IMG/VR virus record: IMGVR_UViG_3300030202_000362 | Location: 1-31,945 of that record | Source: a virus | Lineage: Duplodnaviria > Caudoviricetes | DNA length: 31,945 bases | Reading direction: 5' to 3' (one strand) | Part shown: positions 1 to 5,276 of the stretch, piece by piece | Layout: each line of letters opens with the position of its first letter | Numbering within the stretch: the first letter of the stretch is position 1 | The notes under the pieces: model-generated | The model's database searches: none | Told to the model about the DNA's origin: nothing | What the model saw: the letters and a program-made list of their open reading frames with translations, nothing else | Program-made: the position numbers and the translations under genes

Positions 1-132
1 TTGGTCCTGCACAGATGGCAAGCCCCCGTATAGATCATTGATGGCTTTCGTTAGTGCTTCGCGTAGCTTGTCCGCAATCTCAAAGTGCGTGTCAGTTACA
101 ATCGTCTGATTAGAATACATTCCTTTAACCAT
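1..132 (-). CDS. hypothetical protein, truncated by window edge (MVKGMYSNQTIVTDTHFEIADKLREALTKAINDLYGG...)
   Basis: Read by hand: ATG at 132, upstream AAGGA RBS (aacaaggaactagataccATG), 44 open codons running off the window; not in the ORF track. Confidence 0.7.
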   Translation of the reverse strand, partial: MVKGMYSNQTIVTDTHFEIADKLREALTKAINDLYGGLPSVQDQ

Positions 133-169
133 GGTATCTAGTTCCTTGTTAGAGGTTAGTAACAGGGAA

Positions 170-199
170 AGAATACAAGCGGTATTCCTCCCCTGTCAA
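170..199 (-). promoter_or_regulatory. sigma70-type promoter TTGACA-N18-TATTCT embedded in a hairpin
   Basis: -35 at 199-194, -10 at 175-170; points at the ORF starting at 132. Confidence 0.6.
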
Positions 200-203
200 G
201 CGT

Positions 204-848
204 TTAATGTTTAGGGTAGCTTACGAATTCAACTAGCGGGTCCCAACAAGCGCGACAGTCTCCACAGTTATTGTCATTATGTCTGGCGTAGCATTCAGAT
301 CCTAGCGGCGCTTGATCACTGGTGAATACTTGCGAGGTATTGGCAAAGCCCTTGGGCGCTGGTCCGTTTAACTTGCTGGCTGATACCCGTATGATAAGGT
401 TAGCTGGTACTTTCCCCTTGTAACGTGACACTATCCCACGCTCCTGCGTTGGGAGCCAGTGTTTAATATCAGGCGTGGCGCGTGCCACCTGACAGATTGC
501 GTCTAGCATTTCAACAGACTGGAGGTCGCCACTGTCAAACCACCTGTGATAGCTGTCGGTATTGTACCGGGTAATCTGCAGGACCATAGCAGCAATCCAA
601 GTTGCAATCCCTAGCTCGCTAGTGCTGGCTTGCCTCCACTTGTCAAGGTTAGCTTTCCAACCTTTGTCCACTGATGGCCTAAGCTTTTGAAGCTTGCGGG
701 CATAGCAGGTGTGACATGGCGTACCTTCTATCAGGGCAAGCTTGCTCCCAACTTGACAAGCAAAGGCGTCAATTGCGTAGGTGGTACCGGGCATCTTAGT
801 GTTACCCGTGGAAATGTTTCCGTAGGACTTAGCTTCTTTTACGAGCAT
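204..848 (-). CDS. GP88-family phage protein (Cys-rich, probably metal/Fe-S binding)
   Basis: Motifs KMPG, C-x13-CxxCYA, RWFDSGD, KHWLPTQE, IIRVSA, C-terminal CGDCRACW...VSYPKH typical of the GP88 family. Confidence 0.75.
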   Translation of the reverse strand: MLVKEAKSYGNISTGNTKMPGTTYAIDAFACQVGSKLALIEGTPCHTCYARKLQKLRPSVDKGWKANLDKWRQASTSELGIATWIAAMVLQITRYNTDSYHRWFDSGDLQSVEMLDAICQVARATPDIKHWLPTQERGIVSRYKGKVPANLIIRVSASKLNGPAPKGFANTSQVFTSDQAPLGSECYARHNDNNCGDCRACWDPLVEFVSYPKH

Positions 849-1126
849 TATATAGCTCCCATATCTGATAAGGTGGAAAAGTCAGCGTGTGACATGGACT
901 TGCCAGCATGTTGTGTTTTAAAACTGTTTAAGGCGTGCACAAGAAAAGCATAGTCACCGTAATCTATGACTTGTTTTGCCTCTTCATAGTGCTTGCCTTG
1001 GTCAAGTTCTGACTCTGAAAATAGAGCTTGCATTGCGCCTTCGTCCAGTTCATTAGCTACAAAACTGACAAATTCACCTAGGTCAATATCTTCAAATAGT
1101 TCGGAGTGAAACTCTATATTTGTCAT
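848..1126 (-). CDS. acidic hypothetical protein
   Basis: 92-aa ORF, AAGGA RBS, stop overlaps start of GP88-like gene, promoter just upstream. Confidence 0.75.
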   Translation of the reverse strand: MTNIEFHSELFEDIDLGEFVSFVANELDEGAMQALFSESELDQGKHYEEAKQVIDYGDYAFLVHALNSFKTQHAGKSMSHADFSTLSDMGAI

Positions 1127-1162
1127 GGCGCTGTCTTAGTCCTTAGTTGATACTATGAGGGG

Positions 1163-1192
1163 ATGGTAGGGGGAGGGGGTATACCCTGTCAA
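1163..1192 (-). promoter_or_regulatory. sigma70-type promoter TTGACA-N18-TACCAT
   Basis: -35 at 1192-1187, -10 at 1168-1163; shares cTTGACAggg with the promoter at 170-199; -35 lies in an 8-bp inverted repeat CCCTGTCA-N9-TGACAGGG. Confidence 0.7.
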
Positions 1193-1320
1193 GTGAAAAG
1201 TGACAGGGATAGTAATTTTATTTTGCCACTTGTATAAGAGAAAGAAAGAGTATTCTTATCTTTTTACTTATACAAGGGATATATGGGGGAAGGTATTGTA
1301 ATTTAAGGGAGAAATCCCTT

Positions 1321-1366
1321 GACCCATATGTTGTCCCTCAAGGAGTAGACACACCATATGTTGTGT
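1321..1366. promoter_or_regulatory. tandem NrdR-box-like sites
   Basis: gacccatatgttgtcc (1321-1336) and acaccatatgttgtgt (1351-1366); the second matches acaCwAtATaTwGtgt at 14/16; 30-bp spacing. Confidence 0.55.
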
Positions 1367-1379
1367 TCACGATTTGTTC
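1365..1379 (+). promoter_or_regulatory. alphaproteobacterial LexA (SOS) box
   Basis: GTTC-acgattt-GTTC, exact GTTC-N7-GTTC. Confidence 0.65.
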
Positions 1380-1381
1380 TA

Positions 1382-1464
1382 CTAACTATTGCAGTCATGT
1401 TCTATATATGTATATGTTTTGTTCTAACTATTGCAGTCATGGCAAGCTAACTATTGCAGTCATG
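1382..1464. repeat. three identical 18-bp direct repeats CTAACTATTGCAGTCATG
   Basis: Copies at 1382-1399, 1424-1441 and 1447-1464. Confidence 0.95.
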
Positions 1465-1472
1465 GTTTACTA

Positions 1473-1498
1473 GAATACAAGGAGAACAAAAGAGGAAC
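1473..1498 (-). promoter_or_regulatory. alphaproteobacterial LexA box with an extra degenerate half-site
   Basis: GAAT-N7-GAAC-aaaagag-GAAC; perfect box at 1484-1498. Confidence 0.65.
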
Positions 1499-1525
1499 AG
1501 GTTATTAGCCCGTTCCTTCCCTTTG

Positions 1526-1609
1526 TCATTGCGTAATTAGCATATGGATTATTGCGATCATGGCCAGACCATACATGGCGAGCCATATCATCACGACTAC
1601 TTGCTTCAA
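1526..1609 (-). CDS. 27-aa hydrophobic membrane peptide (MKQVVVMIWLAMYGLAMIAIIHMLITQ)
   Basis: TTG start with TAAGGTG RBS; one TM-like helix; not in the ORF track. Confidence 0.45.
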   Translation of the reverse strand: MKQVVVMIWLAMYGLAMIAIIHMLITQ

Positions 1610-1675
1610 TTGTCACCTTAAACGAATTGGGGAGACCTTTGCGCTGATCCCCCCGCCTCGCCCCTTCAAGCTGGT

Positions 1676-2101
1676 TTAAGCGGCGTTCTTATAGCGTTCT
1701 TGCCGCTCATATGGTGTCTCTTCTACTTCTGCTATGCTGTCAGTATCGGAAAAGACTAGCGTATCGTCTAAGCTACCGTTCTTTACTCGGTACTTAACAG
1801 CAAGCGACACGTAGGTATCGTTAGCTTGCTTGCTAATGAAGCGCCAGAAGCGATACTCCATAAGCGAAGCGATAGAGCCAGACCATTCGTCGTTACGCAT
1901 AATCACCTTGGCATCTTGCCAGAGTGTACGCTCAAAATGGCCTAGGTAGCCTTTAGGTATCCATCCTATTCTTATGGCTGTACTAAGAGCCAGTCGAATG
2001 CGCCAGTTACGATAACCATTAAGACCATCGCCCTTAACATCCGAGAACAGAATTGAACTAACCGACTTAACTGCGTGCTTGTAGATACGATGCTTAAGCA
2101 T
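1676..2101 (-). CDS. hypothetical protein, first gene of the leftward unit
   Basis: 141 aa, strong TAAGGAG RBS; no recognisable domain. Confidence 0.75.
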   Translation of the reverse strand: MLKHRIYKHAVKSVSSILFSDVKGDGLNGYRNWRIRLALSTAIRIGWIPKGYLGHFERTLWQDAKVIMRNDEWSGSIASLMEYRFWRFISKQANDTYVSLAVKYRVKNGSLDDTLVFSDTDSIAEVEETPYERQERYKNAA

Positions 2102-2216
2102 GGTATCAATCTCCTTAGTTTGTTTGAAGGTATATCGAACTTAAGGCCCATCCCTTTCGGGTGACCCCGCCAACCTAGTCTTTAACTACTAGGCGCCTGT
2201 TCGACAGCAATTACCT

Positions 2217-2232
2217 TGCACATGCCGTGCCA
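2217..2232 (-). promoter_or_regulatory. sigma54 (-24/-12) promoter TGGCACGgcatGTGCA
   Basis: GG-N10-GC spacing exact; TGGCACG -24 element is consensus; one mismatch in -12 (GTGCA vs TTGCA). Confidence 0.65.
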
Positions 2233-2250
2233 GTTTAGACAATGTAATGA

Positions 2251-2263
2251 TTTCAATGACTTA
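2251..2263. promoter_or_regulatory. IHF-like binding site TTTCAAtgacTTA
   Basis: One mismatch to WATCAA-N4-TTR; lies at about -45 to -57 of the sigma54 promoter. Confidence 0.55.
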
Positions 2264-2287
2264 GCATTTTAGCTATCTTGATTGGTA

Positions 2288-2354
2288 GGCAAATACTGCC
2301 GCTTTGCTCGGTAATTATTGCCTACTAGGTAAAATCTACCGGGCAATTATTGCC
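2288..2354. promoter_or_regulatory. four GGYA-N5-TRCC palindromes (enhancer/UAS-like)
   Basis: GGCAaatacTGCC 2288-2300, GGTAattatTGCC 2310-2322, GGTAaaatcTACC 2328-2340, GGCAattatTGCC 2342-2354. Confidence 0.7.
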
Positions 2355-2363
2355 TACATGCTT

Positions 2364-2378
2364 GTTCACCTTTTGTTC
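2364..2378 (+). promoter_or_regulatory. alphaproteobacterial LexA box
   Basis: GTTC-acctttt-GTTC. Confidence 0.65.
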
Positions 2379-2474
2379 TTAGGGGGGGTCCCAAAAAACC
2401 TAGAGGTTCTATATATATATTATGGTACCCCCACTAGCGGAGCAATTTTTATAAAATGGGATTCGGCGCGGGTC

Positions 2475-2574
2475 TTTATTAATAATATTAATATTAATCT
2501 ATTAAATATTTATATATATATATATATCTATATAATTTTTATTAATAACTTATTATATATCTATTATATATTTA
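2475..2574. other. 100-bp, 96% AT tract with (TA)n run
   Basis: Only 4 C and no G on the + strand; alternating TA at 2511-2527. Confidence 0.9.
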
Positions 2575-2649
2575 CCCCCGTCGCTTAAACAGCAGGTTAT
2601 CACGCTTTCCAAACCTTTGCAAGACCCTTCTTTTTGTGTTTCTTTCTCC

Positions 2650-2678
2650 TTGTGTTCCCCTCCGGGTCTATGTATAAT
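2650..2678 (+). promoter_or_regulatory. sigma70-type promoter of the morphogenesis unit, TTGTGT-N17-TATAAT
   Basis: Perfect -10 at 2673-2678, followed by AAGGAG RBS of terS; a degenerate LexA-like TTTC-N7-GTTC (2643-2657) overlaps the -35. Confidence 0.6.
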
Positions 2679-2706
2679 ATATTTATAAAAGAAGGAGTAC
2701 TCTATT

Positions 2707-3261
2707 TTGGAAGATACTGAGAAAGAAAAGCTCAAGGATCAGTACGACACACCAGGCAGTGCCAGGTCAGAAGACTATGGTCTAACCAGAAAACAAATAC
2801 GCTTTGCAGAGGAATACATAGCAACCAACGATGCCACCCACGCTCTGCTAGAAGCTGGGTATGCCCCTGTCAAGAAAGCTGACGGTGACCTAGACAAAAC
2901 GAGAACAGCAAGAAGAGCGCAACAGTACCTGGCAAACCCAAAGCTAAGAGCTTATATAGAAATACTCCGTGACGATGTAGTAGAGAAAGTTTCGTGGGAC
3001 GCGCAGAAAGTTCTAGACAAAATGTACCAGACTTATATGCGAGCCACAGAGGCAGAGGACTACACAAACGCCAATAGATCTCTGGAGAACATGGGCAAGC
3101 ACCTGGGCATGTTCATTGACAAGAAAGAAATCAAACAGAACACTCACTTTCACGGCGCTGACTCTACATTTACCGCTGACCTAGACGCAGATATCAAGAA
3201 CCTAGCGGCTATATCTGGGTACGACATGGGCTTAAAGGTGGTAGACGGTGGCAAAGAATAA
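2707..3261 (+). CDS. terS: terminase small subunit
   Basis: LTRKQIRFAEEY...ATHALLEAGY HTH, C-terminal LENMGKHLGMF; upstream of TerL; TTG start with AAGGAG. Confidence 0.85.
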   Translation: MEDTEKEKLKDQYDTPGSARSEDYGLTRKQIRFAEEYIATNDATHALLEAGYAPVKKADGDLDKTRTARRAQQYLANPKLRAYIEILRDDVVEKVSWDAQKVLDKMYQTYMRATEAEDYTNANRSLENMGKHLGMFIDKKEIKQNTHFHGADSTFTADLDADIKNLAAISGYDMGLKVVDGGKE

Positions 3262-3511
3262 AATGGTAGGTGTGAATCTTTCGCTCCCAGAGCAGATAGA
3301 CTCACTCCAAGATATGTTTACCAAGCTACAAACAGTTGCGTTCTCTTTTCCCATGAACGATCCAGAGAACGAAGACTTCAGGGTACAGAAACTCAGGCAT
3401 ATGTTTGCCCAAGTACTTCAGTTAATCTATCTCATGTCAGACGAGATGACAGAGTACTACGGAGAGAAGGGTGGCGATAGTTTAGAAAACCATGATAGAA
3501 CCTACCACTGA
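3248..3511 (+). CDS. hypothetical protein
   Basis: 87 aa, overlaps both terS and terL, fills the gap in the operon. Confidence 0.6.
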   Translation: MAKNKMVGVNLSLPEQIDSLQDMFTKLQTVAFSFPMNDPENEDFRVQKLRHMFAQVLQLIYLMSDEMTEYYGEKGGDSLENHDRTYH

Positions 3512-5024
3512 CGCTATCACTTCAAAAGAACAACTCAGGAACAATCTCTATCTCAAGGCAGTGAACAATGCCAGAATGGAGTTCTTCTCCTTTGTCAGGT
3601 TCATTGCACCGCAACTGGTCCCTGATTTTAAAGTAGGAAAACACATAGAGGTTCTCTCCAGTAAACTACAGACAGTGGTGGATTCACCTGATCCTCAGAG
3701 ACTTATGGTGTTCCTCCCCCCACGTTCCTCCAAGAGTCTGCTCTGTTCGCAGCTGTTCCCTGCGTGGTACATAGGAAACTTCCCTTCTCACGAAATAATG
3801 AGTATCTCTCACTCTGACCAGCTAGCCTCAGACTTCGGTAGAACTGTCAGGGATATCCTGAAGATGCCCCTGTACCAAGAGATCTTCCCCGGAGCCACGC
3901 TCAGAGAGGACGTAAGAGCAGCGGGTAAGTGGAAGACCAAGCAGAACGGTATCTACTACGCAGCAGGTGTACGCTCACAGATAGCTGGGCGCGGTGCACA
4001 CATTGCATTGATAGACGATGCCATGTCAGAGGAGGACGCTTTCTCAGAAGCAGGTCGTAGGTACATCAAGGAGTGGTACCCATCAGGTCTCAGGACACGC
4101 CTGATGCCCAACGGTTCTGTGATTATTATTAACACAAGGTACCACGAAGACGATCTCTGTGGCTGGCTCCTTGGTAACGAAACAGAAGATACAATACCGT
4201 GGGATGTTGTGTCCATACCTGCGTGGCTAGACGAGGAATCATCAAAGCTTCTTAATCTCCCAGAAGGTAGGTCCTATTTTCCTGAGTGGAAACCTGATGA
4301 GCTACTCAGGCTAGACGAGGCAGAGATTCGAGCCAACAACGGAGCCAAGTACTGGCAAGCACTCTATATGCAGAACCCTACACCTGACGAGGGATCTACT
4401 ATAAAAGCTGACTGGTTTAAAAACTGGACAGACGAAGAACCGCCAGAGTGTGACTTGATAATACAAACTTACGACACTGCCTTCTCCACCCGGAGCACAG
4501 CAGACTACTCAGTGATACAAACATGGGGTGTGTTCGACTACCCCTATACAGACTCAGTGGGTAGAGAATTTCTAGCGCCAAACCTTATTCTGCTAGGTAA
4601 TGTCAGAGAAAGATTAGAGTATCCAGAGCTACGCAGGACAGCGCAAGATCTCTACGACGAATACCAACCAGATGTGTGTATCATTGAGAAGAAAGCATCC
4701 GGGCAGAGCCTTATACAAGATATGCGAAGAGCAGGTCTTCCTGTGTTGGATTACCTCCCAGACCGTGATAAAGTGTCTAGAGTACACGTAATTACACCTT
4801 TACTAGAGGCTGGCCGAGTATGGCTCCCCAGAGGCAAAGAGTGGGCAGAAGATTTATATGCAGAGGCTATACAATTTCCTTTTGCCCGACATGATGATCA
4901 GGTAGATGCAATGGCAATGGCAGTACACTACCTCAAAGAGTCATGGCATTTATCTCACCCAGATGATCCTGAATACGAAGACGAAGAGAAGCCCAAGAAA
5001 AAAACTTACTGGAATTGGAACTAG
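3492..5024 (+). CDS. terL: terminase large subunit
   Basis: Walker A PPRSSKS, GRGA, Walker B IALIDD, nuclease QTYDTA...DYS and HDDQVDA. Confidence 0.95.
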   Translation: MIEPTTDAITSKEQLRNNLYLKAVNNARMEFFSFVRFIAPQLVPDFKVGKHIEVLSSKLQTVVDSPDPQRLMVFLPPRSSKSLLCSQLFPAWYIGNFPSHEIMSISHSDQLASDFGRTVRDILKMPLYQEIFPGATLREDVRAAGKWKTKQNGIYYAAGVRSQIAGRGAHIALIDDAMSEEDAFSEAGRRYIKEWYPSGLRTRLMPNGSVIIINTRYHEDDLCGWLLGNETEDTIPWDVVSIPAWLDEESSKLLNLPEGRSYFPEWKPDELLRLDEAEIRANNGAKYWQALYMQNPTPDEGSTIKADWFKNWTDEEPPECDLIIQTYDTAFSTRSTADYSVIQTWGVFDYPYTDSVGREFLAPNLILLGNVRERLEYPELRRTAQDLYDEYQPDVCIIEKKASGQSLIQDMRRAGLPVLDYLPDRDKVSRVHVITPLLEAGRVWLPRGKEWAEDLYAEAIQFPFARHDDQVDAMAMAVHYLKESWHLSHPDDPEYEDEEKPKKKTYWNWN

Positions 5025-5030
5025 ATGATC

Positions 5031-5276
5031 ATGGCGATATCCAGAGCAAGTATCCCCAGAGAACTTAAAGGAGGACGCAAGGTGACAAAGAAAAAGACTG
5101 GCGGCAAACTAGGGAGTGGCTCACGTTTTAAATCCCTCTCCTCCAAGATTCAAAAGAGCGGTAAAAATAAAAAAGATGCAGATGCCATAGCTGCCAGCAT
5201 AGGTAGGAAGAAGTACGGGAACACGACGATGGCAAAGCTCTCAGCCAAGGGTAGAAAGAAGAGGGGGAGGGGATAG
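5031..5276 (+). CDS. small Lys/Arg-rich protein with MCP-like N-terminus
   Basis: MAISRASIPREL...; AIAASIGRKKYG motif; alternative start at 5025. Confidence 0.75.
   Translation: MAISRASIPRELKGGRKVTKKKTGGKLGSGSRFKSLSSKIQKSGKNKKDADAIAASIGRKKYGNTTMAKLSAKGRKKRGRG

Follow-up and report, generated by a model that had tools for sequence, protein, structure and literature searches.

Positions 1321 to 1498 in the genome of an uncultured marine podovirus-like phage, so classed from its sequence, hold a conserved, modular cluster of predicted sites matching those of host repressors: a pair of NrdR boxes, three to five LexA boxes and three possible IscR-type boxes. The predicted sites match at least two, and probably three, repressors of host metabolism and stress responses. 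Our leading interpretation, held tentatively, is that the array most likely serves as a decoy that would draw host repressors off the chromosome once the phage DNA multiplies. Unless a relative is named, coordinates refer to the window, i.e., the whole stretch of 31,945 nucleotides that was analyzed, and published work is cited by PMC number.

Results

The window comprises two divergent gene blocks. Rightward, the structural arm begins with the gene for the terminase small subunit (terS, 2707..3261, plus strand) and continues with terL, portal and capsid genes; among cultured phages, the best match of the terL is to Pelagibacter phage HTVC023P (40%). The leftward block lies left of 2101 and includes, on the minus strand, a gene for a 141-aa helical protein that adjoins the array (1676..2101), a 92-aa gene of no family that is the first after the leftward early promoter (848..1126), and a 214-aa early-arm gene of the GP88 family (PF17338; 204..848), the first and last of these having no assigned function. 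The 141-aa neighbor gave a weak sigma-region-2 lead (score 0.88), and its structure model (pLDDT 66) matched neither a PDB entry nor a DNA-binding fold. Relative L010 is without this gene yet keeps three copies of the 18-mer described below.

The leftward arm was read in a relative, L023 (record G004), with 81% TerS identity. It encodes a T7-like primase/helicase, a family A polymerase, a single-stranded DNA-binding protein and a Cas4-like exonuclease, as well as the class II ribonucleotide reductase (RNR) NrdJ (65% to HMO-2011), thymidylate synthase and Hsp20, and no integrase or repressor family was found among the 26 ORFs scanned in this 18-kb early/replication arm. An earlier note on this DNA had stated that no nrd gene is adjacent to the array, and none is, but the nrdJ of the relative lies about 12.5 kb into the same leftward arm. 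For the phage of the window itself nrdJ is only presumed, because the primase regions of array contigs match those of nrdJ contigs at 77–88% at best. No TerS relative was found in the bacterial genome collection searched for a host.

Upstream of terS, a sequence at 2428..2444 (plus strand) is kept in most relatives and may be a packaging or genome-end site. It falls in a conserved GC-rich element (2380-2570) that is found in most relatives at 60–100% TerS identity, is bordered by a run of TA and by a palindromic sequence very rich in AT, and is a candidate packaging site, genome end or origin. What we take to be an IHF-like site lies near 2246-2258, in the region 2217-2258. Contig depth differed to the left and right of the conserved element (X1, 12.5 vs 8.1; X4, 21.9 vs 11.2; X2, 34.9 vs 20.4); this step of about 1.5–2-fold in three runs (window ~780-2440) is a weak hint of terminal redundancy, contig depth being an unreliable measure. 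Between the LexA-bearing gap and the end element of relative L035 there is a rightward gene (4346-5131; 250–267 aa) with homologues in L025, L026, L029, L049, L055 and L057, which language-model features rate as capsid-like (score 0.94, PF25209 clusters) and which is distant from the structural operon.

The earlier note described 1321-1498 as a packed motif array, and all eight of its motifs were recovered in place, covering 149 of the 178 bases. These are the densest 180 bases of the window, with 8 host-site matches compared with at most 2 elsewhere. Contigs from public marine runs cross the array without differences (X1, 784-2471; X4, 1000-2441), so the array is not an assembly artefact. To its left, a predicted sigma-70 promoter with 10 of 12 consensus matches (1163..1192, minus strand) points leftward, away from the array; promoters of this type also occur in the spacers of 22 distinct relatives. 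All promoters in this study are consensus predictions only. No consensus sigma-70 promoter overlapping the array was predicted, the nearest one ending at 1192, which agrees with the earlier note that no site overlaps the nearest clear promoter.

The promoter and the array are separated by a spacer of 128 bp (1193..1320), which is fixed in length (127–130 bp in relatives) and variable in sequence (54–59% identity between subclade types). It contains an inverted repeat at 1229-1276; in the L019 subclade the same place holds what is presumably a sigma-54-like site (L019 2960-2995), and another lies near the end element (4655-4670). At the right edge of the array, a predicted intrinsic terminator (1493..1517, minus strand), with the same hairpin in L019, would stop leftward transcription. 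The array is thus placed between an outward-facing predicted promoter and a predicted terminator, about 1 kb from the conserved element upstream of terS. Two RNA runs yielded contigs only at 914-1139 and 2645-2941, i.e., outside the array. A non-coding RNA was considered and set aside: an Rfam search of 1-4000 gave one match (E 0.58) and none of note, and the predicted fold of 1300-1530 barely beat shuffled sequences (z −2.0 and −1.9) and consisted mostly of the terminator.

To score the NrdR-like boxes, a profile was built from 57 host boxes upstream of bacterial RNR genes, chosen with a consensus and independently of the phage. Box 2 (1351..1366) scored 18.7 bits and ranked 1 of 31,930, while the weaker box 1 (1321..1336) scored 8.5 bits and ranked 10; host boxes ranged from 2.6 to 19.8 bits with a median of 14.9. 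As a pair the two boxes score 27.2 bits, the next pair in the window scores 7.8, and none of 100 shuffles reached 27.2. Known NrdR pairs consist of two 16-bp boxes about three helical turns apart at RNR promoters, with a stated spacer of 14–17 or 24–27 bp, 14 bp being at the limit of what NrdR binds in vitro, and NrdR sharply kinks the DNA (PMC12051234). The spacer in the window is 14 bp, so that the pair agrees with the known form in box match and, at the edge of the 14–17 bp range, in spacing; the host pairs at RNR genes mostly have spacers of 15–16 bp, and never 14. The pair is not at an RNR promoter, being 128 bp upstream of the predicted early promoter, and box 2 overlaps the LexA box at 1365 by 2 bp.

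Variation among relatives also bears out these two boxes, which the earlier note had picked out. Pattern scans for the 18-mer gave 9 viral and 29 metagenome loci, with 29 distinct arrays that have enough left flank. The NrdR pair is present with a 14-bp spacer in 22 of these, box 2 is accompanied by a weak box 1 at 15 bp in 2, and the pair is missing in the other 5, though one of these five comprises just the right-hand half of an array that is split. Box 2 varies in eight ways, six of which keep the score significantly better (p<0.05) than substitutions made at random, and in one subclade box 2 is a perfect palindrome. On one contig, L199, a second and unrelated NrdR pair with an 18-bp spacer is inserted among the 18-mers. 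In L022, L201, L212 and L218 a different quasi-palindromic 14-mer stands in place of the pair, in two or three copies, and may be the target of a further regulator. Two NrdR-like pairs, with 26- and 14-bp spacers, also occur in L105 at 3200-4700. L105 is not related to this phage, though its two-arm layout is similar, and the non-coding gap upstream of its terS, where the pairs lie, has in addition a LexA-like site and tandem 19-bp repeats.

The direct repeat GTTC-N7-GTTC, which we take to be the alphaproteobacterial LexA box, occurs 5 times in the window, two of these in the array, compared with 0.84 expected, and 1 of 100 shuffles reached 5. A LexA profile was made from 15 recA-promoter sites; because these had been picked by the same repeat, agreement in the core is partly circular. 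With this profile, the putative box at 1365..1379 (plus strand) ranked 5 of 63,858, and two overlapping boxes in reverse orientation at 1473..1498 (minus strand) ranked 6 (1473-1487) and 1 (1484-1498). The LexA assignment of the earlier note holds up against this profile, and 1399..1424 (plus strand) proved to be two degenerate, tandem LexA-like sites that are weak (ranks 27 and 39); in several relatives this place holds full LexA boxes. Phage sites scored 15.0–18.7 bits and host sites 12.3–19.9 bits. Outside the array, a LexA box is found upstream of terS at 2364..2378 (plus strand), where close relatives have one or two boxes, and strict matches also fall inside coding sequence at 1685-1699 (the end of the 141-aa gene) and 3528-3542 (the terL start).

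Of 30 bacterial recA loci in a class taken to be Alphaproteobacteria, 15 have GTTC-N7-GTTY upstream of the gene, and in a second class 0 of 30 do. The exact phage LexA 16-mer was present in 11 of 301 sampled genomes, versus 2 for a control, and the genes beside those matches are not canonical SOS genes. A search of 133 genomes allowing 2 mismatches sampled a class without alpha-type LexA boxes and is uninformative on alphaproteobacterial hosts.

A survey of terS loci further showed that LexA boxes are a recurrent feature of this region. It comprised the window and those 37 of 74 terS loci, at 60% TerS identity or more, that have a long upstream flank, grouped in 14 clusters. Strict LexA boxes were found upstream of terS in 9 of the 13 clusters having at least 1.8 kb of upstream sequence and in none of the other 4, and they number 24 in 33.2 kb upstream of terS compared with 3 in 52.7 kb downstream (p 9e-8). 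LexA boxes whose spacers differ are found in one clade after another, with TerS identity as low as 63%. In the 17 mapped loci no strict LexA box lies on a predicted −35/−10, the promoter calls being consensus-based. Five cultured alphaproteobacterial podoviruses have no LexA cluster, and their 14 scattered matches compare with 22 in a reversed control.

The third motif is an 18-mer with three exact copies, all on the plus strand (1382..1399, 1424..1441 and 1447..1464), compared with 0.03 expected by chance; 0 of 100 shuffles reached three. Its candidate binder emerged from an unseeded motif search of 29 regions upstream of Rrf2-family genes (30 were fetched and one was dropped for an N), in which the motif recovered is the palindrome tabulated as the IscR or Iron-Rhodo box (PMC1698941, Tables S2 and S7). 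This is a 19-bp palindrome with a TGAC-N7-GTCA core, and in Rhodobacter Fe-S-loaded IscR represses genes that have it (PMC4618611). The Rrf2-derived profile placed the 18-mers at ranks 3, 4 and 12 in the window, which 3 of 1000 column-shuffled profiles equaled. Our confidence in the 18-mer as a candidate IscR/Iron-Rhodo site is only moderate, because the three copies count as a single observation, the motif was one of several candidates compared, all 96 copies have TAAC or TAAT as their left half and never the host TGAC form, and a common variant scores 4–10 bits compared with 10–22 for host sites.

Within arrays the 18-mer occurs in 1 to 5 copies, all in one orientation and with an invariant 11-bp core, at spacings of 19–75 bp (most commonly 20 and 42 bp), and it is often duplicated along with a LexA box. 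Beyond this phage clade, the 18-mer was nowhere found in multiple copies; the 11 matches in bacterial genomes are single and scattered, and none is labelled as from an alphaproteobacterium. In the divergent gap of L026, L029, L038 and L057, a tandem hexamer and other short repeats lie beside a LexA box, with no 18-mer. A role of the 18-mer as a general phage promoter element was rejected, as it is confined to the array and has no consistent downstream −10, a −10-like TAnnnT lying 17 bp past its first hexamer in 11 of 107 site contexts. Judged by eye, it does not fit the PhoB, CtrA and sigma-54 motifs, nor the Fur-alpha, Mur, RirA and Irr consensus sequences as given in PMC1698941.

Comparing the same region in related phages, a check proposed in the earlier note, showed that sites are kept, that their copy number is elastic and that sets of sites are swapped between subclades, but also that the distance to the promoter is rigid. 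From the −35 of the early promoter to box 1 it is 127–130 bp in all 19 distinct spacers having the box, and two further arrays gave 129 and 130 bp. In a subclade that lacks the NrdR pair, the first 18-mer is 181 bp from the −35 rather than 188–191 bp, i.e., 7–10 bp closer, or about one helical turn. The right side, in contrast, is variable: the terminator is 154–305 bp from box 1 in 21 arrays, and in a further array 687 bp. A rightward gene with its own promoter splits the array in L019 and similar contigs, and the right half in L019, with two 18-mers and LexA boxes, is enclosed by a rightward terminator on one side (3592-3614) and a leftward terminator on the other (3703-3729), with no promoter predicted in between.

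Other relatives have Fur/Mur-like boxes at the same region (L031/L032, L057, L064 and L066), of which there are none in the array of the window; the box of L031/L032 has exactly the sequence of a Mur box listed in PMC1698941 (Table S4). The 19-bp Fur-alpha/Mur palindrome (PMC1698941, Tables S4 and S6) occurs 14 times in 85.9 kb upstream and 2 times in 146 kb downstream, the loci not being de-duplicated. The AT-rich relative L066, at 63% TerS identity, combines several Fur-alpha-like boxes with two LexA boxes and with four direct repeats of 13 bp in this region (~3300-4570).

Discussion

If the array is a decoy, host NrdR, LexA and IscR-type proteins would bind it while it stays untranscribed, the terminator keeping transcription out, and replication to tens to a hundred genome copies would supply enough sites to titrate them. 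The host would be expected to make more ribonucleotide reductase, to step up RecA-type repair and to increase its supply of iron or Fe-S. NrdR, LexA and holo-IscR or Fur all occupy their sites when the cell is replete and undamaged (PMC12051234, PMC4618611, PMC9437464), and therefore their titration would raise dNTP supply, repair and iron uptake. A healthy host would then act as if short of dNTPs and iron, which would suit a replicating lytic phage. By simple arithmetic, an assumed 100 copies of the array in the window amount to about 500 LexA-like sites, 100 NrdR pairs and 300 18-mers. In E. coli, 96–672 plasmid-borne decoys measurably titrate PhoB (PMC8599769), and by analogy the dose at 100 copies would be within the range of such decoys. 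For the family as a whole, we would put forward, with similar reserve, that a lytic marine podovirus lineage may use a swappable, protein-free DNA sponge of NrdR, LexA, IscR or Fur operators, each subclade having its own set.

The decoy reading had been put forward in the earlier note, and the comparison with relatives both strengthens and complicates it. In its favor are the insulated position of the array, sites that fit host-trained profiles, substitutions in box 2 that conserve the score, and strict LexA boxes that avoid predicted promoters in 17 of 17 mapped loci. The number of sites is elastic, with sites gained, lost and swapped; L199 gained its second NrdR pair, and the half-array of L019 has no promoter to control. 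The absence of integrase and repressor families from the 26 ORFs of the relative's arm also accords with a decoy. Against it, a pure decoy has no need of a fixed 127–130 bp between the promoter and box 1, which is kept although the spacers are 54–59% identical, and the 14-bp NrdR spacer is not the host optimum of 15–16 bp. The relative has its own NrdJ and thymidylate synthase, and there are only about nine sites per genome copy. LexA is negatively autoregulated, which would buffer titration. The overlap of box 2 with a LexA box bars both from being filled independently, four of 13 clusters are without a strict LexA box, and the left half of the 18-mer never has the host form.

The alternative in the earlier note, a multi-input switch for the leftward genes, is a possibility we regard as nearly as likely as the decoy, and the two are not mutually exclusive. 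As a sensor of host state, bound NrdR, LexA and the iron regulator would here repress the leftward early promoter remotely, by looping or wrapping over the 128-bp spacer, or else an unmapped promoter, and the phage would be deferred until the host is damaged or starved. The constancy of the promoter-to-box-1 distance over diverged spacers, together with the shift of about one helical turn in the NrdR-less subclade, is as long-range, phase-dependent promoter control would predict, and NrdR sharply kinks DNA (PMC12051234). All three repressors release under stress. There are also precedents, in that CtrA sites regulate phage genes (PMC9437464) and Spo0A represses the early promoters of phi29 (PMC2731898), and in the unrelated L105 an NrdR-like pair brackets, by eye, a candidate terS promoter. 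The closest box is, however, 128 bp upstream of the −35, whereas Rhodobacter IscR sites overlap or abut the −35/−10 (PMC4618611), and a −10-like TAnnnT at 17 bp accompanies just 11 of 107 18-mer contexts. The L019 island between convergent terminators also speaks against control of a promoter, as none is predicted there, as does the lack of maintenance genes (integrase, repressor) in the arm examined.

We consider it unlikely that the array is part of a replication origin or genome-end element, in which the 18-mers would serve a phage protein as iterons, and host repressors bound beside them would gate initiation or aid DNA entry. In favor of this, the 18-mers are co-oriented, with an invariant 11-bp core and spacings that are most often 20 and 42 bp, and as multi-copy sets they are confined to this clade, the bacterial matches being single and scattered; but many spacings are out of phase (19, 23, 27–29, 35–36, 44–46 and 56), and the 141-aa neighbor, missing in L010, has no DNA-binding fold match. 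The array is about 1 kb from the family-wide element upstream of terS, other clades have other short repeats here, and Spo0A blocks replication initiation in phi29 (PMC2731898). Yet the family has a T7-like primase/helicase and a family A polymerase with no initiator seen, and there is no clear skew switch. Least probable in our view is a neutral by-product, by which slippage and recombination in a hypervariable end region multiplied chance host-like repeats. The region is indeed mosaic and repeat-rich, and its copies stem from recent duplications and are therefore not independent. Against this reading, box 2 variants keep the host profile, a second, unrelated NrdR pair was gained, LexA boxes of differing spacers recur down to 63% TerS identity, and five cultured alphaproteobacterial podoviruses are without such a cluster.

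Phage take-over of metabolism is usually inferred from protein-coding auxiliary genes, and if operators alone can reprogram a host, there would be a layer of manipulation invisible to gene annotation. Should the decoy reading be true, phage replication would be tied to host iron regulation in iron-poor seawater; should the array instead be a sensor, it would be a three-input logic element that relies wholly on host repressors, no repressor of its own having been found in the phage. The site content also hints at the host group of an uncultured phage family, and under either reading the 180-bp fragment is directly testable in laboratory alphaproteobacteria.

The nearest parallels in the literature are the CtrA-site clusters of alphaproteobacterial phages and the Spo0A boxes of phi29. 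The CtrA-site clusters of vB_BsubS-Delta and phiCbK-like phages, linked to lytic deferment, are alike in being dense host-factor sites on alphaproteobacterial phage DNA, set in a large gap between divergent gene blocks or in terminal repeats (PMC9437464). They differ in that one cell-cycle regulator acts on phage promoters, whereas the array would engage at least two, and probably three, repressors away from predicted promoters; the text of that paper has no occurrence of "titrat", "sequest" or "decoy". The Spo0A boxes of the Bacillus phages phi29 and Nf are likewise host regulator sites on virulent phages, but they act by direct repression of early promoters and of origins, and put the lytic cycle on hold (PMC2731898), while the array involves other regulators and no predicted-promoter overlap. 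In LexA-controlled switches such as that of GIL01, host LexA boxes replace a phage repressor, but there the phages are temperate and the boxes belong to the promoters of their antirepressor or lytic genes (PMC9437464), whereas the LexA boxes described here are 130–250 bp from predicted promoters in most relatives, are mixed with other sites, and come with no temperate marker found. The NrdR pairs of RNR promoters also have two 16-bp boxes about three turns apart (PMC12051234), and the pair in the array differs in its spacer (14 vs 15–16 bp), in having no RNR gene downstream within 12 kb, and in overlapping no predicted promoter. A search of the open-licence literature yielded neither a natural decoy array in a phage nor a phage genome with NrdR boxes. 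What is known, then, are host regulator sites on phage DNA that serve a single regulator and act on phage promoters or origins. Synthetic DNA sponges and decoys in E. coli (PMC7686491, PMC8599769) use arrays of sites on multicopy DNA to titrate a factor, but those were engineered and measured, whereas the array described here would be a natural, phage-borne version directed at several repressors.
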